Assembly (NCBI GenBank): GCA_045645465.1
Contig: JAZRIV010000007.1
Location: forward strand, 5,114 to 69,113
DNA from: Candidatus Egerieisoma sp.
GTDB lineage: Bacteria > Bacteroidota > Bacteroidia > Bacteroidales > UBA932
Direction of reading: 5' to 3'
DNA: 64,000 nt
Below the pieces are notes generated by a model. That model was not told the DNA's origin. It did not search any database and saw only the letters and a list, made by a program, of their open reading frames with translations. Below, piece by piece: positions 31,456-43,775 of this stretch; position 1 is the stretch's first letter, and every line of letters starts with the position of its first letter. Position numbers and translations under genes: made by a program.

Positions 31456-31493
31456 ATTAGCGGAATCCATCAAAATTGAGAAATTCCGCTAAT
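31456..31493. repeat. Stem-loop element, copy 1 (ATTAGCGGAAT N16 ATTCCGCTAAT)
   Basis: Perfect 11-bp stem. Copy 2 at 36958-36996 has the same stems, a partly shared loop start (ATCAAAA) and a shared 3' flank (TAT...CTGCCAaATT vs CTGCCAgATT). Confidence 0.75.
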
Positions 31494-31722
31494 TATATTT
31501 ATTCTTAAGGTATCACCTGCCAAATTACTGTTGAAGCTCCAGAAACCTTCAATGGCAGAACCACACTATAAGGTTGGAAAGACTCTCTCAACTGCAGAGC
31601 CAGAGCAACTGAAGGAAATTCTGAGGATTCTGTATAAAAATGCAGTAGAAAAAAGAAGCAAGCAAAGATTAAGGATTCTAACCTGGATTCAAGTATTTTT
31701 ACCTTTAAGAAAAAATACCGCT

Positions 31723-32019: not shown

Positions 32020-32053
32020 TCATTATAGGAATTTGCAGGCCCGTTTAGGAGGT

Positions 32054-32130
32054 ATGTGGTGCAAGAAAAAAGAAAAACCCTCTCAGAATTGCTTCTAAGA
32101 GGGTTTTTCGTACCCAGAGCCGGGGTCGAA
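32054..32130. repeat. att junction distal to the tRNA: ATGTGGTGCAA motif, terminator hairpin copy and 21-bp copy of the tRNA-Leu 3' end
   Basis: GTACCCAGAGCCGGGGTCGAA at 32110-32130 is identical to 43693-43713. The hairpin CCCTCTCAGAA/TTCTAAGAGGG (32078-32103) and the motif at 32054-32064 parallel 43626-43686. Confidence 0.8.
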
Positions 32131-32253
32131 AATAGCAATCTTTTGCAATGCTATAAAATCGGATGAAATGTATATAATAAGCTGATATACAATTAGATAC
32201 AAAGGATAAATTTTTGCATTTATTTCCGTAAAATTCTCCTAAATTGCGTTTAT

Positions 32254-32282
32254 GTGGTGCAAATTTTGTAAATTTGCACCAC
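32254..32282. promoter_or_regulatory. 29-bp palindrome overlapping the integrase promoter (putative integrase arm/operator site)
   Basis: GTGGTGCAAATTT-tgt-AAATTTGCACCAC has perfect 13-bp arms. It contains the -7 box TAAATTTG (32269-32276), 25 nt upstream of the int ATG. Each arm is a copy of the ATGTGGTGCAA motif seen at both att ends. Confidence 0.6.
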
Positions 32283-32301: not shown

Positions 32302-33660
32302 ATGGCAACAGTAACAGCATTTATCAGAACATCTGCCAAAAAAGTAAGGGATGTAAATGTCCGTTTCCGCTTGAGGGATGGCAGGCAAATCCAATTGTTG
32401 TACAGCAGTGATATAACTGTTAATCCTGAACATTGGAATCCAAAAAAGGAGGAAATAAAGGCAAAGGTTCTGATGGATCCGGTTCTGAAGGCAGAATTCA
32501 ATAGAAATGTTGCCAGAATAAAGGAGATAATTATAGAGGTTTACAATAAGGCTGAGGATAAGGCGGCCCTAACTTCTGAATGGTTGGCTCTGCAGGTGGA
32601 AAGAACCCTTCACCCGGCTGTTCATGATGAGAAGGAAGAAAATAATTTCTTTGAGGATTTTGACCAGTTCCTGGAGGTGAAGAAGCTCTCCGAAGTGCGC
32701 ACCAGAAACTTTAAGGTAATTTACCGTGCCCTGCAAAGATTTGAACTGTATAGGAGATTCAACCGCTACAGCAAGTTTGCACTCTCTTTCAAATCTGTTA
32801 CTCCCGATATATTACGTGAATTTGAGGAGTTCCTTAGAATGGAGCATACCTTTTTTATCAAGGATGAGGAGACTGGCAAATTCAAATGCAGCAGGAAATA
32901 CAAACCTGTTTACGATGTGTTCCCTGAGGCAAGGACTCCTCAGCAAAGGGGGCAGAACACCATCAATGACATTTTCACCAAATTGAGAACTTTCTTCCGT
33001 TGGGCAGTGGAACAAGGGAAAACAGAAAACAATCCATTTAAGCATTTCTCAGTAGAGGATTGTGTATATGGTACGCCATATTACATCACTATAGATGAAA
33101 GGAACAAACTGTACCATACCAATATGGATGATAATCCTTCACTGGCTGTACAAAGAGATATATTTGTTTTTCAATGCCTGATAGGTTGCAGGGTGGGTGA
33201 TTTATATAATCTAACCAAGAAAAACATAATAAACGGTGCGGTAGAATATATCCCTCGTAAAACAAAAGATGGAAGACCGGTAACAGTAAGGGTGCCGCTC
33301 AATTCAATAGCAAAAGAGATACTGATGCGCTACAGGGAAACTCCAGGTACTGCACTATTCCCATTGGTCTCCCAGCAGAAATACAATATAGCCATAAAGA
33401 AAATGTTCCTGGCTGCTGACCTTACCCGCCCGGTAGTGGTATTCAACCCCACCACTAGCGAAGAAGAAATCCGCCCACTGCACGAAATTGCCTCATCCCA
33501 CCTGGCCCGCAGATGCTTCATAGGGAACCTCTATAAACAAGTGAAAGATCCCAACCTGGTAGGCGTTCTCAGCGGCCACAAAGAAGGCAGCAAAGCCTTC
33601 TCCAGATATAGGGAGATTGATGAACAAATGAAGAAGGATTTGGTGGGGATGTTGGAGTAG
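32302..33660 (+). CDS. Tyrosine site-specific integrase (Bacteroidetes phage-integrase type with N-terminal arm-binding domain)
   Basis: The N-terminus is MATVTAFIRTSAKKVRDVNVRFRLRDGRQIQL. The catalytic region has CLIGCRVGDL (Arg), ASSHLARRCF (HxxR) and SGHKEGSKAFSRYREID (His, Tyr). Confidence 0.9.
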   Translation: MATVTAFIRTSAKKVRDVNVRFRLRDGRQIQLLYSSDITVNPEHWNPKKEEIKAKVLMDPVLKAEFNRNVARIKEIIIEVYNKAEDKAALTSEWLALQVERTLHPAVHDEKEENNFFEDFDQFLEVKKLSEVRTRNFKVIYRALQRFELYRRFNRYSKFALSFKSVTPDILREFEEFLRMEHTFFIKDEETGKFKCSRKYKPVYDVFPEARTPQQRGQNTINDIFTKLRTFFRWAVEQGKTENNPFKHFSVEDCVYGTPYYITIDERNKLYHTNMDDNPSLAVQRDIFVFQCLIGCRVGDLYNLTKKNIINGAVEYIPRKTKDGRPVTVRVPLNSIAKEILMRYRETPGTALFPLVSQQKYNIAIKKMFLAADLTRPVVVFNPTTSEEEIRPLHEIASSHLARRCFIGNLYKQVKDPNLVGVLSGHKEGSKAFSRYREIDEQMKKDLVGMLE

Positions 33661-33664
33661 AATC

Positions 33665-34723
33665 CTAAACTAGGGGTAATGTTATAATAAATTTATTTTC
33701 TGCATACTCAATTCCATCGATTATTTTATTAACTTCTCCTGGTTCTATACCTAAGGTTCCACCATTTAGTTCTATTAACGTTTTTGCTCTGAACATGCCT
33801 ATTCCTTGACCAGCTTTGTTTGTTTTAATAGCCAGATGGCCTGAATATCCTTCATTAAAAATGTCCTTCTCTTCAATAGGTTCAATATACAAACTGCTCA
33901 TCTTAAATATAATATACTGCTCTTTGGCTGATCTTTCAAAATAAATATAAGCAGTTGAATTTGGTTCAATATATTTACATGCATTTTCTATTATGTGGTA
34001 TATTGCAACCTGAAAGGATTCGTAATCTAAGTTGACAGTTTCAAAACAATCTGCAACATCAACTCGCACTTTTATTGTATTAAAATCAATAAAGAACGAA
34101 TAAAGGATTCCAAGAATAACATTGCGAACATTATGACTCCTTTTGTTAATAGACATACGTCCCTTTAGAAGTTTCTCATAGATTGTAAATTCAGCTTTTG
34201 TCGCGATAGTATTCTTGGTAATACGAAATAATACTTCTGGAATATCGCGATTTTTGCTTAAAATTCTTGATTTTATGAAATCTAAAGCTTCGCGGTGATT
34301 CTTTGTCTTGATCAGCTCTTCTTGTGGAATAAGAGCATATATTTCACCAAGTGAATGAGCATTTAATGATCGTAGGTTGTGTACGACTCTATCTACTCTC
34401 TGGGTAATCTCAGATATGCACTGATCTTTGACAGAATTATAGGTTTCTATTAATGTTTTAATAGCTGGTATAATAATCTCAAAATCTGCATGGAAATTGC
34501 AAGTTTTTGTATAATTTTCGCCACATGCAAATAGATTGCCTTTGCAGCTCTCATTTAGTCTTATCCTTTTGAATGAATTGTCAAGAGGGCATACAATTCT
34601 GTTATAACTCTTAGGCGGTTGTACATTAGAAATTATGCAATGTTGACATTTGTCCGAGACAAGTTCGTTAATTATAGCCTGTCCACATTCATTTGTTATT
34701 AATTTGTGCAATTTCTTTTGCAT
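33665..34723 (-). CDS. Soluble histidine-kinase-like protein with a Cys-rich N-terminal domain
   Basis: There is no TM segment. Seven Cys lie in the first ~75 aa (CGQ..., KCQHC, VCPL, ESCKGNLFACGENYTKTC). An H-box-like VVHNLRSLNAH is followed by HATPase_c motifs: the N-box IIENACKYIE and G-box KAGQGIGMFRAKTLIELNGG. Confidence 0.75.
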   Translation of the reverse strand: MQKKLHKLITNECGQAIINELVSDKCQHCIISNVQPPKSYNRIVCPLDNSFKRIRLNESCKGNLFACGENYTKTCNFHADFEIIIPAIKTLIETYNSVKDQCISEITQRVDRVVHNLRSLNAHSLGEIYALIPQEELIKTKNHREALDFIKSRILSKNRDIPEVLFRITKNTIATKAEFTIYEKLLKGRMSINKRSHNVRNVILGILYSFFIDFNTIKVRVDVADCFETVNLDYESFQVAIYHIIENACKYIEPNSTAYIYFERSAKEQYIIFKMSSLYIEPIEEKDIFNEGYSGHLAIKTNKAGQGIGMFRAKTLIELNGGTLGIEPGEVNKIIDGIEYAENKFIITLPLV

Positions 34724-35309
34724 AGTCTGATATCAACTCTAAATATTCAATAGGATCTGCATCCTTACGTAAACAGTAATCAACTTTTCGTAAATCTTCA
34801 TCAAAACGATCTCCAACTGTTTCCGCAGAATAAATTATTACTTTTTTCTCAGGGAAGGTTTGCTTAATACGAGCTGCAAGGCCAAGTCCTTGCTTTGAGG
34901 ATAATTTTACAGCTACACCATTAATATCAATGAATATAATATGAGCAGCTCTAATATCAGCATCTTCTAGACTGTTGATGTCTTTTTTGTAAAGTACATT
35001 GTGCCAACCTGCTGATTTTACTGTTTTAGTCATGCCAAATTTTTGATCATCAACAAATAAAATGTTTGTTGATTTTTTTAGCACCTCTATATCAATTGTG
35101 TAGATCGAATTTGTAGTGTCTACTTTATCATTCGGATTTGTAAAGTTAATGTCTATCTTTTGGGTTAACGATTGTGTCTGTTGTTGTTTTTGTGTCTGCT
35201 TTTGTTTTTGACCTTGCTTTTGCTTTTGAAAAATTTTTTCAAATCCCCACAAAGAAGTAATAATAGTTATAATGATACCTAAAATTGCAATGATTTGATC
35301 TATTGTCAT
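34689..35309 (-). CDS. Membrane-anchored stand-alone receiver (REC) domain protein with a Q/K-rich linker
   Basis: The N-terminal TM helix is IIAILGIIITIITSLWGF, followed by the linker QKQKQGQKQKQTQKQQQTQ. The REC signature residues are present: ILFVDDQ, HIIFIDING, KVIIYSAE and CLRKDADP. Its 3' end overlaps the kinase start by 35 nt. Confidence 0.7.
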   Translation of the reverse strand: MTIDQIIAILGIIITIITSLWGFEKIFQKQKQGQKQKQTQKQQQTQSLTQKIDINFTNPNDKVDTTNSIYTIDIEVLKKSTNILFVDDQKFGMTKTVKSAGWHNVLYKKDINSLEDADIRAAHIIFIDINGVAVKLSSKQGLGLAARIKQTFPEKKVIIYSAETVGDRFDEDLRKVDYCLRKDADPIEYLELISDYAKEIAQINNK

Positions 35310-35356
35310 GTTTTTTTAGCAAGTTAATATATTTTTTTTGTTTATTGTCATTATAT

Positions 35357-36307
35357 ATGAGAAAAGTACTTAATGGAACAAATTTTGAGTTACATAAATT
35401 ATTCATTACATTTGACACTATGATTATTAATGACAACATAAATGTTCAGGATGACCGTTTAATGAACGGTCTTATTCCTATGGTGCGAATCATGTCTAAG
35501 ATTGAAAAATCTGGGGATGATAGGGTTGTTATAGATTTTTCTAAAACGGATTTTATTTCACCTGTTTTCGTGCTCTCTCTACTTGTTTATGCTAAAAAGA
35601 GTGGTAAAGAGATAATTTTTGAAAACTTGAATGAGTATATGAAAGCTATTCATATGGATGGCGGAATAAAACCCGATGAATTGAGAAATAGTGAGTTCCT
35701 TGCTATAATGGAAGGATACTCTAAGAGAACATATATTCCAGTTATTAATTTCCCTGCCAACAAAAATAATGATGAGAAAGAAGGTATTCTTTCAGCAGTT
35801 GAAGAATTAATAATAAGGCAGTTGAATATACCTAACAATGTTGCGTATGGTATAAAGTATATGTTAGGTGAAACTATTGATAATATCACTGAACATTCAG
35901 AAACTGATAGAGGTTTTTTATTCTGTCAGGCTTATAAAAATAAAGGATATTTGGATATATGTATAGCGGATAGTGGTGTTACATTGTTGGGTAGCTATCA
36001 AAAATTGGAAGATAAATTTATAGAGAATGATTTGGAAGCTATTAAGGCCGCAAATAGACAGATTTCAAGTAAGAACTTGCCAGATGCTGAAAATAGGGGT
36101 TATGGTATCTACACTTCTAAAAAGATGTTGATAAAAGGATTGTCCGGCCAATATATGATAATGTCTGGAAGTGCTATATACATGAAGAGTAAGACAATTG
36201 ATCAATTCTTTACTCTTCCAGAAGGATTGAGATGGGATGGTACAATTGTTGCACTTAGAATACCGTACCAAGCATCACAGTTTGATTATATTAAATACAT
36301 TGAGTAA
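35357..36307 (+). CDS. STAS-like N-terminal domain fused to a SpoIIAB/RsbW-type GHKL ATPase (serine-kinase-like) domain
   Basis: Taken from the first ATG at 35357; the ORF-track start at 35303 is a TTG. The N-domain is DDRVVIDFSKTDFISPVFVLSLLVYAKK. The GHKL motifs are GETIDNITEHSE, ICIADSGVTLLGS and NRGYGIYTSKKM. The exact start is uncertain. Confidence 0.65.
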   Translation: MRKVLNGTNFELHKLFITFDTMIINDNINVQDDRLMNGLIPMVRIMSKIEKSGDDRVVIDFSKTDFISPVFVLSLLVYAKKSGKEIIFENLNEYMKAIHMDGGIKPDELRNSEFLAIMEGYSKRTYIPVINFPANKNNDEKEGILSAVEELIIRQLNIPNNVAYGIKYMLGETIDNITEHSETDRGFLFCQAYKNKGYLDICIADSGVTLLGSYQKLEDKFIENDLEAIKAANRQISSKNLPDAENRGYGIYTSKKMLIKGLSGQYMIMSGSAIYMKSKTIDQFFTLPEGLRWDGTIVALRIPYQASQFDYIKYIE

Positions 36308-36319
36308 AAGAAGAAAGCT

Positions 36320-36682
36320 ATGATAACAATTGATATTACAAGACTTTTGTCACAGGATTTGAAATCTAGGTCAAGGGCGCAAGATTTGCTATTGTATGTT
36401 CAGAATTGTGATGAGCAAGAGGTTGTGATAGATTTTCAGAATGTTAAGTTTGCAACCAGAAGCTTTATTGATGAATTCTACAATTTATTCATAAAGGAAA
36501 CTTCAAATTTGCCTTTCAAGGTGGAAATTGATAATGTTCCTGAGGATATACAAATAATGCTTAATTCTGTTAGCAATACGCAAACAAGAGCAAAGAACAG
36601 GACGGTTAATGCAACAGCTGAAGTAATAAATTTTGATAGTATGGATAGCATGCTCAAGTATATGAGCACAGTCGCATTTTGA
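36320..36682 (+). CDS. Free-standing STAS-like (DUF4325-like) protein
   Basis: 120 aa. The core EQEVVIDFQNVKFATRSFIDEFYNLF is paralogous to the N-domain of the upstream gene. It starts 12 nt after that gene and is followed by a terminator. Confidence 0.65.
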   Translation: MITIDITRLLSQDLKSRSRAQDLLLYVQNCDEQEVVIDFQNVKFATRSFIDEFYNLFIKETSNLPFKVEIDNVPEDIQIMLNSVSNTQTRAKNRTVNATAEVINFDSMDSMLKYMSTVAF

Positions 36683-36703
36683 GAAATAAAATATTTCTAT
36701 AGA

Positions 36704-36729
36704 GGGTTGGATAAGTTCCAGCCCTTTTT
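36704..36729 (+). terminator. Rho-independent terminator of the STAS/GHKL operon
   Basis: GGGTTGGA and TCCAGCCC form a stem (one G-T pair) with a 5-nt loop, followed by TTTTT. Confidence 0.65.
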
Positions 36730-36957
36730 GTTGTCTATGGATAATAAAATCCCCTCTTCCCACAATTTCATTGTCTATAGACAACGAAATTTCTCTCAGC
36801 AATGATTCCTGTTAAAAGGATGATATGTTACCTTTAATCAATAATATTTCAAAAAACTGTAGGTTGTAAAGACAATGTGACGGAGGGGTTAAGTTGGGGG
36901 TCAAGTCAGAAAAAGGGTACAAGTCAAAGCTCACGTACCCCATGTTTTTGCATTATA

Positions 36958-36996
36958 ATTAGCGGAATCTATCAAAAAAGACACGATTCCGCTAAT
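36958..36996. repeat. Stem-loop element, copy 2 (ATTAGCGGAAT N17 ATTCCGCTAAT)
   Basis: It has the same 11-bp stems as 31456-31493 and shared flanking bases. Confidence 0.75.
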
Positions 36997-37193
36997 TATC
37001 TTTTATCCCAAGTGGGTGTTTCTGCCAGATTGCCGTATCAAACGTACACCTATGTGTAGTTCTGTGCAGCTCTGTGGAGATTAAAATGGGGTAAAATGTT
37101 ACTTTTTGTTACACAGAGTATTACGTAGCTGTACGGGTCTTTTTAGGCATAAAATTTGTGGCAATTGATGATGCTGAACAAAGAGGATGATAT

Positions 37194-37877
37194 ATGGATT
37201 TTAGGGAATTTGTTACACGAAAAAAAGAGAATCAAACGCTTAAGGATATGATACTGGAGTTGGATAAATCGCTTCTCTTTAAGCTATATGTGGATTTTAT
37301 ATGGGATGCGTTTAAGTTTTTGGCACTTGTGACTGCTATGAAAGTGTATTTTGACTGTAGGGTAGATCGTGGTATGGGGTGTTTTGATTCTTTGATGTAT
37401 TCAGCATTTATTTTTGTTGTAATCATACTTGCTCTAATAATCCTTGCATATGCAATCTATAGCCTTGTTGTCATTATCGGTTCATGGCTTGATGGGTACT
37501 TTGCAAGCAGACGTTTAAGAAAGAGTACACAGGAGGTAAAACAAATCATTCAGCCAGAACTCCCTCCCATCAACAAAGAGCTTCTTTCCCAATATCTGTC
37601 AGCCAAATTCAAGGGTATGGGTGCGAACGAAAATTATGTGCCCCAGCTGCTGAAAGATTTGGAAATTCTCCAGAAAACTTCCCCTACGGAGGTGCAGCGG
37701 TTTGCAGTTATGCTGTATGAGTCAAAGGTTATGGTAAATAAACCGGCGCAGTTCAATGAGTGGGTGAAGATCTTTTTCAATATTGTTGGAATGGAGCATC
37801 CTAAATATATCTCCAGGAGCAAGCATAAGCCTACTCCGGATATGATTAACCGTTATTATTACATAAATTTACCCTAA
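37194..37877 (+). CDS. Hypothetical membrane protein (two TM helices, soluble C-terminal domain)
   Basis: 227-aa ORF followed by a hairpin (AATAAGC...GCTTATT) and a T-run at ~37931-37965. No recognisable motifs. Confidence 0.5.
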   Translation: MDFREFVTRKKENQTLKDMILELDKSLLFKLYVDFIWDAFKFLALVTAMKVYFDCRVDRGMGCFDSLMYSAFIFVVIILALIILAYAIYSLVVIIGSWLDGYFASRRLRKSTQEVKQIIQPELPPINKELLSQYLSAKFKGMGANENYVPQLLKDLEILQKTSPTEVQRFAVMLYESKVMVNKPAQFNEWVKIFFNIVGMEHPKYISRSKHKPTPDMINRYYYINLP

Positions 37878-38421: not shown

Positions 38422-38900
38422 AATCCAAGAATGGTAGGCCGTTCTTTATGGTTTATCAGTTTTTTGCTCAGGAACTGGGGTTGCGGGGAGCGGCAAAGGA
38501 GGTATATGCAATCATCTATGGCCGTTATGTGTCATTTGATGGGGTGGCGAAAGTCTCTCTGAGGGAAATGATGCGCCTTACAGGACTTACCAAGCAGAGC
38601 GTCATAAATGCACTTAAGGCCCTGCAGGAGGCAGGACTCATAGAGAAAACCGCCTCTACCAACAAGAAAAGCACCTACAAAATCCAGGGTATAGAGATTA
38701 GTCCCGACGGCAAACCGGTAAAAATTTTAGACCAGTCAAAAATTTTGACCAGTAAGGGGTCAAAAAACTTTACCAGTAGAGGTGAAAAAATTAGACCACA
38801 TATAGATAAAACAGATACTCTTAATAAATACAGTAAAAATGAAAATTCATCAATTAATCTTGAATCTCCAAGCAACTTCAGAGGGAGAACAACTCTGTAA
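38418..38900 (+). CDS. Winged-helix replication-initiator-like protein
   Basis: The wHTH segment is VSLREMMRLTGLTKQSVINALKALQEAGLIEK. The gene contains four iteron-like repeats and is followed by a DnaC/IstB-like ATPase gene. Confidence 0.55.
   Translation: MKSKNGRPFFMVYQFFAQELGLRGAAKEVYAIIYGRYVSFDGVAKVSLREMMRLTGLTKQSVINALKALQEAGLIEKTASTNKKSTYKIQGIEISPDGKPVKILDQSKILTSKGSKNFTSRGEKIRPHIDKTDTLNKYSKNENSSINLESPSNFRGRTTL
38720..38800 (+). repeat. Four 17-bp iteron-like direct repeats (putative replication origin) inside the initiator gene
   Basis: The repeats are aaaaattttagaccagt (38720), caaaaattttgaccagt (38737), caaaaaactttaccagt (38761) and gaaaaaattagaccaca (38784). A very AT-rich stretch follows. 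Confidence 0.55.
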
Positions 38901-39483
38901 ACCGGGTAAATTGCAAGAGAAAAAAGAAAATATTGAATCTGCTCTGCAGATGCTTTATAAAATACAGGTGGAAGCCAGAGGAAGGGAATTTATAGCTGAT
39001 GCCCCAACCCTCGACAAGCTGAATCTCGCTGCAAAATGGCTTGGCTGTAGTCAAAAATTTGGACTAGTGCTTTATGGAAATGTAGGTTCCGGCAAAACCA
39101 TGCTCCTGAACTCTCTTACGCAACTGTTTTTCCGTACTGGCTGCTTTATACCTCACATAATTAGCACTACGGCAGCAGAACTGCAAAGATACTATGTGCA
39201 GGATCAAAGCGCAGAAGGCTTCTACGGAGTAGCTAAAAACTGCAAAATCCTACTGCTTGACGACCTTGGTTGCGAACCAGAGAACTGCATCATATACGGC
39301 ACTTCATACCATCCCATCTCAGAAATAATCTACCACCGTTACCGCAACCAGCTCACCACAATTCTAACCACAAACCTCACCGACAGCGAACTTGCTTCCC
39401 GATATGGTCCCCGCATAATGGACCGCCTTGAAGAGTCATTTGATTTCATTGCCTACACCAACCCCAGCTACAGGAAGAGGTGA
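38839..39483 (+). CDS. DnaC/IstB-like AAA+ ATPase (helicase-loader-like)
   Basis: Walker A is LVLYGNVGSGKT and Walker B is ILLLDDLGCEP. The start is ambiguous between ATG 38839 (overlapping the upstream gene) and ATG 38950. Confidence 0.75.
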   Translation: MKIHQLILNLQATSEGEQLCKPGKLQEKKENIESALQMLYKIQVEARGREFIADAPTLDKLNLAAKWLGCSQKFGLVLYGNVGSGKTMLLNSLTQLFFRTGCFIPHIISTTAAELQRYYVQDQSAEGFYGVAKNCKILLLDDLGCEPENCIIYGTSYHPISEIIYHRYRNQLTTILTTNLTDSELASRYGPRIMDRLEESFDFIAYTNPSYRKR

Positions 39484-40292: not shown

Positions 40293-41537
40293 ATGAGTTT
40301 TATAGAAAAAGATACATATGGGATTGAAGATATTCAGTCCTTAATAGAAATTCAGGCAGAAGAAAATACATACTATGAATTTAAGGATGCAAGGGCTATT
40401 GATGATAAGCAGAAGGCTGAAATCTCAAAAGATGTGTCTGCATTTGCAAATGCCGATGGGGGTGTTATTATCTATGGTTTGAATGAAGATAGAAATACCC
40501 ACAAGGCATCATGTTTGAGTTTTGTTAACTCTTCAAGATATTCAAAGGAATGGCTTGAAAATGTTATTCTGTCTAATATACACAGAAAGATTGATGGGCT
40601 TTATCCAACTACTGAAAGTTTTAAAGTATGGGCACAATACTCAGCTTCTGATCTTACAGCGTGGGAAAACGGTAATACATACATGGATGCTGTTACATGT
40701 GTACATGACGCGACTAAAAAAGGCTGGATCCCTAGCGGGGCCCAATATTACTGGCCTAAAAACGGAAAGTTGTCTTTTGCAGCATTTTCGCCTGCATCAA
40801 CGACCAATGTAACATATGATAAAACAGGTGTAACAGTTAAAGATTATATTGTTCCAAGTACAGAAAATCATACCGATCTTTTGTACAGTCACAGAGCATA
40901 CAATAAGACTGCTACTAATCAGGATGATATTCCAGATATTCCTAATTACACAGGAGTTGACATTAACTTCCATCATGCATTGACTTCTGTTATATTCAAA
41001 GTAAAACAGGCTGCAGCATATACAGGCACCACTTTAACATTAAAATCAATACAATTAAACAATGTATATAGCAAAGGTACTTTCAAAGAGAATATAACTG
41101 CTCAAACTGGGGGGACAGATGATGATAAATGTACAAGAGCACCTGGTTGGAGTGATCAAGAACAAGAGGTGATTTATACAGTAATAAGTGATATCTCCCA
41201 AGTTTTAACTACATCAGCTGTTGTTGTATCTGGTGCAAAAGACATGCTTTTGATTGGACAGAAATATAATCATGGAACTAAATACGTAAGCATGACTGTT
41301 ACCTATACTATAAAGAGTCCTACCGGTAGTGAAATTTTACAGAGTAGTACAGTAGAATTCAAAGGCCTTACACACAAGGTTAATGGTACTGATGCAGTAA
41401 GCAGCATTCAAGATGGGTGGTACCCAGGATACGAATATACTTATATAATATCTATTGGATTGAATGGTGAAATTCAATTTGAGCCAATTGTTAGTGAATG
41501 GACTCCTATTTTGGCTGATCCAGAAATTGGATTGTAA
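40293..41537 (+). pseudogene. Chimeric ORF: AlbA_2/Schlafen-type N-terminal fragment fused in frame to a signal-less fimbrillin (FimA/Mfa-like) C-terminal portion
   Basis: The first ~105 aa (YYEFKDARAIDDKQKAEISKDVSAFANADGGVIIYGL) match the AlbA_2 DNA-binding domain. The rest (FKVWAQ..., YYWPKNGKLSFAAFSP, HTDLLYS, INFHHALTSVIFKVK, IQLNNVYSKGTF) matches fimbrillin family proteins lacking their lipoprotein leader. The junction is near 40600-40620. Confidence 0.6.
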
Positions 41538-43625: not shown

Positions 43626-43713
43626 ATGTGGTGCAAATGTGGTGCAACCAAAAAGAAAAACCCTCTTAGAGATATCTCTAAGAGGGTTTCAAGTACCCAG
43701 AGCCGGGGTCGAA
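43626..43713. repeat. att junction at the tRNA: tandem ATGTGGTGCAA motifs, terminator hairpin and 21-bp core (part of the tRNA)
   Basis: ATGTGGTGCAA occurs at 43626-43636 and again at 43637-43647. The core GTACCCAGAGCCGGGGTCGAA lies at 43693-43713. Confidence 0.8.
43651..43686 (-). terminator. Rho-independent terminator of tRNA-Leu, supplied by the end of the integrated element
   Basis: Perfect 13-bp arms CCCTCTTAGAGAT/ATCTCTAAGAGGG, followed on the minus strand by TTTTTCTTTT. Confidence 0.7.
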
Positions 43714-43775
43714 CCGGCACGGGTCGCCCCACTGGTGTTTGAGACCAGCGCGTCTACCGATTCCGCCATCTGGGC
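43694..43775 (-). tRNA. tRNA-Leu (anticodon CAA), type II with long variable arm
   Basis: The minus strand reads GCCCAGATGGCGGAATCGGTAGACGCGCTGGTCTCAAACACCAGTGGGGCGACCCGTGCCGGTTCGACCCCGGCTCTGGGTA. The anticodon stem is CTGGT/ACCAG with loop CTCAAAC, and the T-arm is GCCGG-TTCGACC-CCGGC. Confidence 0.85.

Follow-up and report, generated by a model that had tools for sequence, protein, structure and literature searches.

Two neighboring two-gene phospho-signaling modules, a PDC-M43 pair and a VapK/VapS-like pair, are probably independent cargo of a tRNA-Leu-integrated island

Do four adjacent signaling genes on a mobile island form one system, or do they only share an address? The genes in question occupy positions 33665-36682 of a 64,000-nucleotide (nt) stretch of contig JAZRIV010000007.1 from Candidatus Egerieisoma sp. 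(this whole stretch is referred to here as the window). They begin 4 nt after the 3′ end of a tyrosine integrase gene and are arranged as two divergent pairs. The left pair encodes a histidine kinase and a membrane-anchored receiver protein and matches PDC-M43, a family of the PADLOC-DB collection; the right pair encodes a STAS-GHKL kinase and a small STAS protein (here the kinase/STAS pair) and resembles VapK and VapS. A previous reading of the letters alone (the sequence-only reading) had treated all four genes as a single phospho-signaling cassette and the main candidate for an undescribed defense or conflict system.

To determine how the two pairs are distributed relative to each other, we examined 167 loci of the right-hand kinase (80 species-representative genomes, 11 metagenome loci, and 76 viral contigs) and 13 loci of PDC-M43. 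No homolog of the left pair was detected within 6-8 kb of any kinase/STAS locus (0/167), and no kinase/STAS pair was detected at the PDC-M43 loci (0/13). A sister island, L019, provides a direct comparison. It carries the same integrase (96% nucleotide identity), and 11 bp after the stop codon of that gene its homology to the window resumes at position 35382 (90% nucleotide identity), such that the 1.72 kb holding PDC-M43 in the window (33661-35381) is missing. PDC-M43 is also missing beside the nearest relatives of the kinase (L020 and L021, 96-97% identical). A single four-gene system was rejected as a candidate explanation on the grounds of the absent cooccurrence and of L019. Together, these results suggest that the locus probably comprises two independent two-gene accessory modules, of the defense or abortive-infection type, which became neighbors by chance in the cargo bay of the island.

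The identity of the left pair was established by profile searches and structure prediction. Its two genes lie on the same strand and overlap by 35 nt. Against PADLOC-DB, the 352-amino-acid (aa) protein matched PDC-M43B (E = 2.3e-97, residues 1-350 on profile positions 1-342 of 347) and the 206-aa protein matched PDC-M43A (E = 1.4e-53, residues 11-199 on profile positions 14-200 of 203); the pair matched no other family in that database. An AlphaFold2 (AF2) model of the 206-aa protein (pLDDT 79.5) consists of a transmembrane (TM) helix at residues 3-29, a disordered segment at residues 30-72, and a (beta-alpha)5 receiver fold at residues 73-205, and 50 of its 50 best Foldseek matches in the PDB were receiver domains (TM-scores of 0.7-0.79 on the target). 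When the protein was aligned with 34 homologs, a variable hydrophobic N terminus and a low-complexity linker were seen to precede a conserved C-terminal domain of ~125 aa, and the canonical receiver set of D87, D88, D128 (in the motif FIDING), S161, and K182 was invariant. In the 352-aa protein, H115-N116 (in RVVHNLRS), N-box residue N247, and the glycine box G305/G307/G309 are all invariant in the family alignment. Its C-terminal 140 aa (the CA domain) align with many histidine kinases in NCBIfam, and its N terminus contains several Cys residues. From these sequence matches, we conclude that the left pair is a member of PDC-M43, from which nothing structural sets it apart.

PDC-M43 denotes multigene "phage defence candidate" number 43 of PADLOC-DB and stems from a guilt-by-embedding screen (Payne et al., bioRxiv 10.1101/2024.01.29.577857). 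That screen drew 145 untested candidates from genes embedded in BREX, DISARM, and type I restriction-modification (R-M) loci (bioRxiv 10.1101/2024.01.29.577857). A search of the literature library for "PDC-M43" returned no paper mentioning it. We found homologous pairs between hsdS and hsdR of type I R-M operons, which also hold other embedded genes (YhcG-type nucleases, AAA_15/21 ATPases, and Fic proteins). Further pairs lie between the large terminase (TerL) and portal genes of Alistipes-type prophages, where they adjoin an R-M moron; on six IMG/VR contigs; and next to a recombinase in Flavobacterium channae. The recurrent placement of PDC-M43 within type I R-M operons points to defense.

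We then considered the right pair, which is listed as two open reading frames (ORFs) on the forward strand at 35303-36307 and 36320-36682, separated by a gap of 12 nt. The most likely start of the kinase, as judged from homologous sequences, is the ATG at 35420 (295 aa) and not the one at 35357 (316 aa), because more than 100 homologs (295-297 aa) begin at the equivalent position and because in L019, where similarity to the window is lost 5′ of 35382, no in-frame start lies further upstream. This shortens the kinase and lengthens the divergent spacer to ~110 bp from 47 bp, so that both values of the sequence-only reading (~316 aa and 47 bp) are revised. Within this spacer, a Bacteroides-type TAnnTTTG motif (TACATTTG, 35402-35409), retained in L019 as TAAATTTG, is a putative promoter.

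The predicted structure of the kinase (AF2 model, pLDDT 84, pTM 0.86) combines two known folds. Foldseek matched its C-terminal half to SpoIIAB, RsbW, and UsfX (TM-scores of 0.71-0.75), SpoIIAB and RsbW being the closest solved folds, and its N-terminal half to STAS proteins. In the family alignment, the N-box residues E151/N155 as well as D184/G186 and G227/G229 are invariant, and F45 is nearly so. The 120-aa partner matched the STAS-like Pfam family DUF4325 with an E value of 4e-4, which lies below the Pfam cutoff, and carries the invariant family motif DF..V.F[A/M][T/S]RSF.DE. Across 67 sequences of this protein, [T/S]46 and S48 are invariant and in register with S48 of VapS. No helix-turn-helix (HTH) match was obtained for the STAS protein, and by Pfam and fold search the kinase begins with its STAS domain. 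Neither the kinase profile nor the STAS protein retrieved a useful match in sequence searches of the PDB, the VapS/CapS entries being absent or too divergent, and an exact-sequence look-up of the window kinase found no record. Each of the four proteins in the block has dozens to thousands of homologs, with E values down to 1e-90 to 1e-200, more than chance would produce. As a separate observation, a protein of 1266 aa (P0267) consists of a DEAD/ResIII helicase with a C-terminal copy of the STAS-GHKL kinase module. The window kinase itself gave a weak PADLOC match to the N-terminal part of the DrmA model; the helicase fusion fits this match and a role in nucleic acid sensing.

Much of what had been read from the letters alone agrees with these analyses. 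The ORF listing reproduced the four genes at their original coordinates, with the 35-nt overlap and the 12-nt gap, and the last of them is followed by a terminator-like hairpin (36701-36727). Every domain assignment was correct when compared with AF2/Foldseek, PADLOC, NCBIfam, Pfam, and the alignments. The residues predicted as phospho-His (H115, in VVHNLRS) and phospho-Asp (D128, in FIDING) proved invariant in their families, and none of the four proteins contains a DNA-binding, sigma factor, nuclease, or other enzymatic effector domain.

The kinase/STAS pair was compared with a recently described defense system. VapKSC consists of three genes encoding VapK (STAS-GHKL), VapS (STAS plus a short C-terminal region, with phospho-site S48), and the PIN toxin VapC, and it protects Escherichia coli against phage Bas42 (Chambers et al., EMBO J 2026, PMC13373217). 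VapK residue F54, a putative single-stranded DNA (ssDNA)-stacking residue, is needed for defense (PMC13373217). In the related CapK/CapS, which controls CBASS, Bub, and other immune operons, ssDNA activates the kinase CapK (HTH-STAS-GHKL); CapK then phosphorylates a conserved Ser of the STAS-winged-HTH (STAS-wHTH) repressor CapS, and CapS comes off the DNA (PMC13373217). Escherichia VapK and VapS sequences were taken from the AlphaFold3 file of PMC13373217, and a kinase family profile was built from 109 representatives. This profile aligned with residues 25-292 of the 302 residues of VapK (41 bits, E = 1e-16 for that comparison) and placed its F-x-S-P-F motif on VapK F54 and on F46-A-S48-P-F of VapS, so that F45 of the window kinase corresponds to F54 of VapK. 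With hhalign, the close kinase family aligned with VapK over 240 columns (E = 4e-4, 23% identity). For the two small proteins, BLASTP aligned EVVIDFQNVKFATRSF of the 120-aa STAS protein with EVILDFSNVKMFASPF of VapS; the two have in common an F-x-[S/T]-x-x-F phospho-site motif around S48 of VapS. As far as sequence comparison can tell, the right pair is homologous to and collinear with VapK/VapS and is a distinct variant of the CapK/VapK-CapS/VapS family that lacks an effector.

To determine how widely this two-gene form occurs, we investigated the kinase family and its genomic surroundings. The family is large, with 2,568 representative clusters matching at E ≤ 1e-3, of which 231 reach E ≤ 1e-30. 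A match to the STAS gene was detected in 158 of the 167 kinase loci, and in the 91 gene-called genome and metagenome loci it lies 0-35 nt from the kinase gene; the exceptions are a small number of frameshifted or miscalled genes. Porphyromonas has the two genes in reverse order. Flanking genes differ almost everywhere. In a search for a conserved neighbor or third gene, no Pfam family was seen more than twice among the 115 downstream neighbors or more than three times among the 110 upstream ones. An overlooked third gene or effector 3′ of the STAS gene was likewise discarded as a possibility, as intergenic distances and neighbor families in the 91 loci revealed nothing conserved. Nine downstream genes lie only 9-70 nt away. 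Six of these are housekeeping genes (a polysaccharide flippase, Tex, choloylglycine hydrolase, a YhcH-family protein, and two C69 peptidases), and the other three encode an APH-type phosphotransferase, a small HTH_3 protein, and a DUF6922 protein; none of the nine (0/9) encodes a PIN domain. Neither is there a VapC-like PIN toxin as a third gene in the window, where the STAS gene is followed by the terminator and then by an ORF with no Pfam family (37194-37877).

The pair is also carried by viruses and other mobile elements. In the isolated Bacteroides fragilis phage BF1-TP2, it lies just after the endolysin gene as gp43/gp42, and it occupies the corresponding position after the lysis genes in a widespread group of viral contigs, as seen in the representative L106. 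The same kinase allele is present on most of the 76 viral contigs. In the Methanothermobacter prophage psiM100 (L188; NC_002628.3, 7090-8221), ORFB and ORFC are homologous to the kinase (E = 3e-45) and the STAS protein (E = 9e-20), respectively, lie in a segment annotated as an insert ("inserted fragment IFa"), and are followed by the 492-aa ORFD. Integrases related to that of the island flank some other kinase/STAS loci. A plasmid collection yielded only two remote matches, in Halobaculum and Nostoc. One distant kinase representative, used as a query, retrieved nine mostly short contigs, again with kinase and STAS genes paired. Taken together, these results identify the kinase/STAS pair as a very common stand-alone two-gene unit in Bacteroidales.

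How might each module work? The analyses above establish what the domains and catalytic residues are, how the genes are linked and related, that the pairs move independently, and where they occur; the triggers and outputs proposed next are inferred. PDC-M43 is a complete His-Asp relay, and the only part of it that is not concerned with signaling is the N-terminal TM helix of the receiver. An infection-related cue may act on the Cys-containing N-terminal region of the kinase, which would autophosphorylate on H115 and pass the phosphate to D128 of the receiver. The phosphorylated receiver would then dimerize or oligomerize, clustering its N-terminal TM helices, and the cluster may damage or depolarize the membrane and so abort the infection. 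By analogy, this scheme would follow the logic of Detocs, an experimentally documented defensive His-Asp relay in which ~20% of systems use non-PNP effectors, some of them transmembrane (Rousset et al. 2023), with a TM segment as the effector.

For the kinase/STAS pair, homology with CapK/VapK suggests that ssDNA arising from phage replication or DNA damage would bind the groove between the STAS-like and GHKL domains, at the conserved aromatic residue F45. The activated kinase may then phosphorylate T46 (or S48) of its small STAS partner, which would change what that partner binds. Because the pair encodes neither a toxin nor a DNA-binding domain, its output would have to be sought either in the kinase, once released by the STAS antagonist in the manner of classical partner switches, or in a trans-encoded factor; as a further option, the pair may have a part in the stress response or addiction of the element that carries it. 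A tentative proposal, which we regard as possible though not as the expected outcome, is that the pair is a complete two-protein immune or addiction system, widespread among gut Bacteroidales and their phages, that would work with no separate toxin. In this proposal, the ssDNA-activated kinase would phosphorylate and release its STAS antagonist, and the freed kinase would be the effector, either sequestering a factor of the host or the phage, for instance a sigma factor, in an anti-sigma-like partner switch, or phosphorylating essential targets. If true, such a kinase-as-effector pair would represent a new output logic for the CapK/VapK family.

Other explanations of the locus were weighed against two independent modules. 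One is an integrated four-gene system, in which His-Asp relay and kinase/STAS switch would both feed a single pathway whose shared output is the TM-anchored receiver. The pairs do lie next to each other in divergent orientation and share a control region of 110 bp, and one other four-gene case exists, on a 3.1-kb contig (L189) with the same arrangement. However, L189 is collinear with the window at 91.8% nucleotide identity and therefore belongs to the same island lineage, providing no independent evidence. The lack of cooccurrence at the 167 and 13 other loci, the presence in L019 of the kinase/STAS pair without its neighbor, and the occurrence of each pair alone in many unrelated contexts all argue against a joint pathway, and we regard it as very improbable. 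The cassette of the sequence-only reading fails for these reasons, the only repeat of its four genes being the 92%-identical copy of the same island. A second alternative is that the kinase/STAS pair serves the mobile element that carries it, as a DNA-damage-sensing switch or an addiction (toxin-antitoxin-like) module that might, for example, time the induction of a prophage or island or stabilize the element; PDC-M43 would likewise be an element-maintenance or superinfection-exclusion device. This alternative is consistent with the response of CapK/VapK-type kinases to ssDNA from DNA damage (PMC13373217), with the carriage of the pair in prophages next to the lysis cassette and on an integrase-bearing island, and with its scattering as a tight two-gene unit between housekeeping genes, which is typical of toxin-antitoxin modules. 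The authors of the VapKSC study themselves describe the line between immunity and stress response as blurred (PMC13373217). Nevertheless, many copies are chromosomal, with no visible mobile element within 8 kb, which makes a role in the life cycle of one element unlikely to be general, and the repeated location of PDC-M43 inside type I R-M operons also speaks against it. Overall, we consider an element-serving role unlikely. Finally, the pairs could be ordinary cellular regulators, namely, a housekeeping two-component system and a partner-switching module that controls a nearby operon or a sigma factor of the host. Both signaling chemistries retain their catalytic residues, and the similarity to SpoIIAB/RsbW noted above would suit such a role. 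Yet no DNA-binding output, sigma factor, or PP2C phosphatase is encoded in or next to either pair, and a cognate sigma factor or PP2C phosphatase was found neither in the island nor among the neighbors of the kinase/STAS loci. Neighbors differ in nearly every genome, the pairs reside on islands, in prophages, and inside R-M operons, and their GC content is atypically low; a regulatory role of this kind is hardly credible.

Several observations weigh against two independent defense modules, which nevertheless remain our preferred reading. The 110-bp divergent promoter region is shared by the pairs both in the window and in L189, so local coregulation is possible. Recognized defense genes (GajA, AbiEi, DrmB, SoFic, type IIG R-M, and PDC-S01) are found among the four nearest neighbors in only a minority of kinase/STAS loci, and most neighbors are housekeeping genes. 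The similarity to VapK is remote (~23% identity), with an hhalign probability of only 34% against the single sequence. A single TM helix would be a minimal effector and is possibly only an anchor. PDC-M43, as one of 145 candidates, is known from sequence only, as are all kinase/STAS pairs without VapC.

The two pairs are carried on an 11.6-kb, tRNA-Leu-integrated, mobilizable island (Table 1). It is bracketed by a 77-nt direct repeat whose copies are 86% identical and spaced 11583 nt apart, and the last 21 nt of the repeat are identical to the 3′ end of the tRNA-Leu gene. GC content is 30-34% in the four-gene segment versus ~42% in the flanks. The AT-rich, mobile, tRNA-borne setting described in the sequence-only reading is therefore borne out. 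An Rfam search detected no RNA family in the four-gene region.

Table 1. Coordinates of the island borders, the integrase, and the two gene pairs in the window
Feature	Position	Strand	Remarks
attL-like copy of the tRNA-Leu 3′ end and its downstream hairpin	32054-32130	.	left island border
Tyrosine integrase of the island	32302-33660	+	452-aa ORF; 96% nucleotide identity to the integrase of sister island L019
PDC-M43B, soluble histidine kinase, 352 aa	33665-34723	-	Cys-containing N-terminal region of ~95 aa, DHp domain with H115, CA domain
PDC-M43A, 206 aa	34689-35309	-	single N-terminal TM helix, Q/K-rich linker, C-terminal receiver domain, predicted phospho-acceptor D128
Divergent intergenic region	35310-35419	.	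right 38 bp (35382-35419) belong to the kinase/STAS module
VapK/CapK-like kinase, 295 aa	35420-36307	+	predicted N-terminal STAS-like domain fused to a SpoIIAB-type GHKL Ser/Thr kinase
VapS-like small STAS (DUF4325) protein, 120 aa	36320-36682	+	C-terminal tail of ~35 aa; candidate phospho-acceptor T46 (S48 also invariant)
Terminator-like hairpin closing the kinase/STAS operon	36701-36727	+	11-bp stem, then T run
tRNA-Leu(CAA) (43693-43775) with attR repeat copy (43637-43713)	43637-43775	-	ARAGORN and Rfam; right island border

Additional features were observed in and around the island. A third partial copy of an att-flanking sequence (TATGTGGTGCAAAT) is located at 32251-32269, just 5′ of the integrase start, with the others at 32053 and 43625. 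Position 40587 was considered as the right end of the island, since the homology to L019 switches there, and was dropped in favor of the tRNA-Leu repeat at 43637-43713; it is an internal recombination breakpoint. The switch falls exactly at 40587, inside a forward-strand ORF (40293-41537), with 99.8% identity to the right and unrelated sequence to the left. This ORF is chimeric, with a Schlafen/AlbA_2 domain at residues 24-103 and an Mfa-like fimbrillin at residues 110-403, and the breakpoint probably created it as a fusion or pseudogene. Downstream of the kinase/STAS terminator, the forward-strand ORF at 37194-37877 encodes a predicted membrane protein of 227 aa that matches no Pfam family at E ≤ 0.01 and of which L019 retains a 72%-identical copy. 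A ~55-nt motif with a palindrome (ATTAGCGGAATC...) occurs in two copies, at 31456-31509, ~20 nt upstream of ORF 31531, and at 36954-37012, ~180 nt upstream of ORF 37194, one of them outside the attL repeat; this repeat may be an operator or a small mobile repeat. Four iteron-like 20-mers (AGTCAAAAATTTTGACCAGT) at 38717-38777 and 39049-39068, within overlapping genes for an HTH (MarR/RepL-like) protein and an IstB-like ATPase, may be a replication or transfer origin. The L019 contig (JAZSEZ010000011.1) aligns with the window in four blocks (~7.3 kb in total, 90-99.8% identity), and the window has Bacteroidales features. The metagenome-assembled genome (MAG) that contains L019 is labeled Candidatus Egerieisoma, a genus placed by NCBI in the Clostridiaceae; L019 is probably a mis-binned contig.

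These results remove a false lead, in that the four-gene block needs no categorically new claim. The statement that no named system has this composition holds only for the accidental juxtaposition of four genes and not for its halves, the left pair being PDC-M43 and the right pair a member of the CapK/VapK-CapS/VapS family. The more general idea of defense- or conflict-type cargo, in turn, is supported. PDC-M43 emerges as a candidate minimal two-gene defensive two-component system with a membrane-anchored receiver, of which the window offers a clean natural example, carried by an island that is also known in a version lacking it. For the right pair, homology suggests that the family of ssDNA-activated kinase-STAS switches also exists in an abundant two-gene form that has neither toxin nor repressor, with a range spanning human- and animal-gut Bacteroidales and their MAGs, phage BF1-TP2, and the archaeal prophage psiM100. 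The interest of the locus rests mainly on the abundance of this effector-free pair in gut Bacteroidales and their phages and on what it controls. Knowing its output would extend a signaling principle drawn so far from three systems (CapKS, VapKSC, and the sporulation/stress partner switches).

Relative to the systems already named, the left pair agrees with PDC-M43 in nearly full-length matches to the A and B profiles and in gene order and adjacency, and its homologs lie within type I R-M operons, the kind of embedding by which the candidates were originally defined. In common with Detocs, PDC-M43 has a His-Asp phosphorelay without DNA-binding output and would place the effector on the receiver protein, a minority of Detocs effectors also being transmembrane; the predicted phospho-His (H115) and phospho-Asp (D128), both invariant in the alignments, are present as well. 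It differs in having two genes rather than three, with no stand-alone buffer receiver (DtcB) and no second receiver in the 32-37 kb interval, and its kinase has a small Cys-containing N terminus in place of TPRs. The TM segment of the PDC-M43 receiver is N-terminal (residues 3-29) and the receiver domain C-terminal (residues 73-205), the reverse of DtcC. No Detocs-named PADLOC match was obtained for the window proteins, although the presence of Detocs models in that release was not verified.

The right pair would share with SpoIIAB-SpoIIAA and RsbW-RsbV, the closest solved folds for both halves, a Ser/Thr kinase that acts on a STAS protein. In contrast to those partner switches, the window kinase has its own fused STAS-like domain, and the pair is mobile and phage-borne. 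By analogy, CapK/CapS would use the same kinase-substrate chemistry and probably the same signal. However, the window kinase lacks the N-terminal HTH of CapK, the STAS protein lacks the winged-helix DNA-binding domain of CapS, and the pair is not upstream of an immune operon, the genes 3′ of it being variable. VapKSC is similar to the right pair in several respects: (i) the kinase has the same STAS-GHKL architecture without an N-terminal HTH (295 versus 302 aa) and aligns end to end; (ii) the aromatic residue implicated in ssDNA sensing is conserved (F45 in the window, F54 in VapK); (iii) the small STAS proteins are alike in size (120 versus 116 aa), phospho-site motif, and short C-terminal extension; and (iv) the gene order, kinase and then STAS, is the same. 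The right pair differs from VapKSC in having no VapC or any other third gene, in its ~23% identity, and in the unrelated housekeeping genes that lie 3′ of such pairs, and the window kinase belongs to a distinct, very large clade centered on Bacteroidales.

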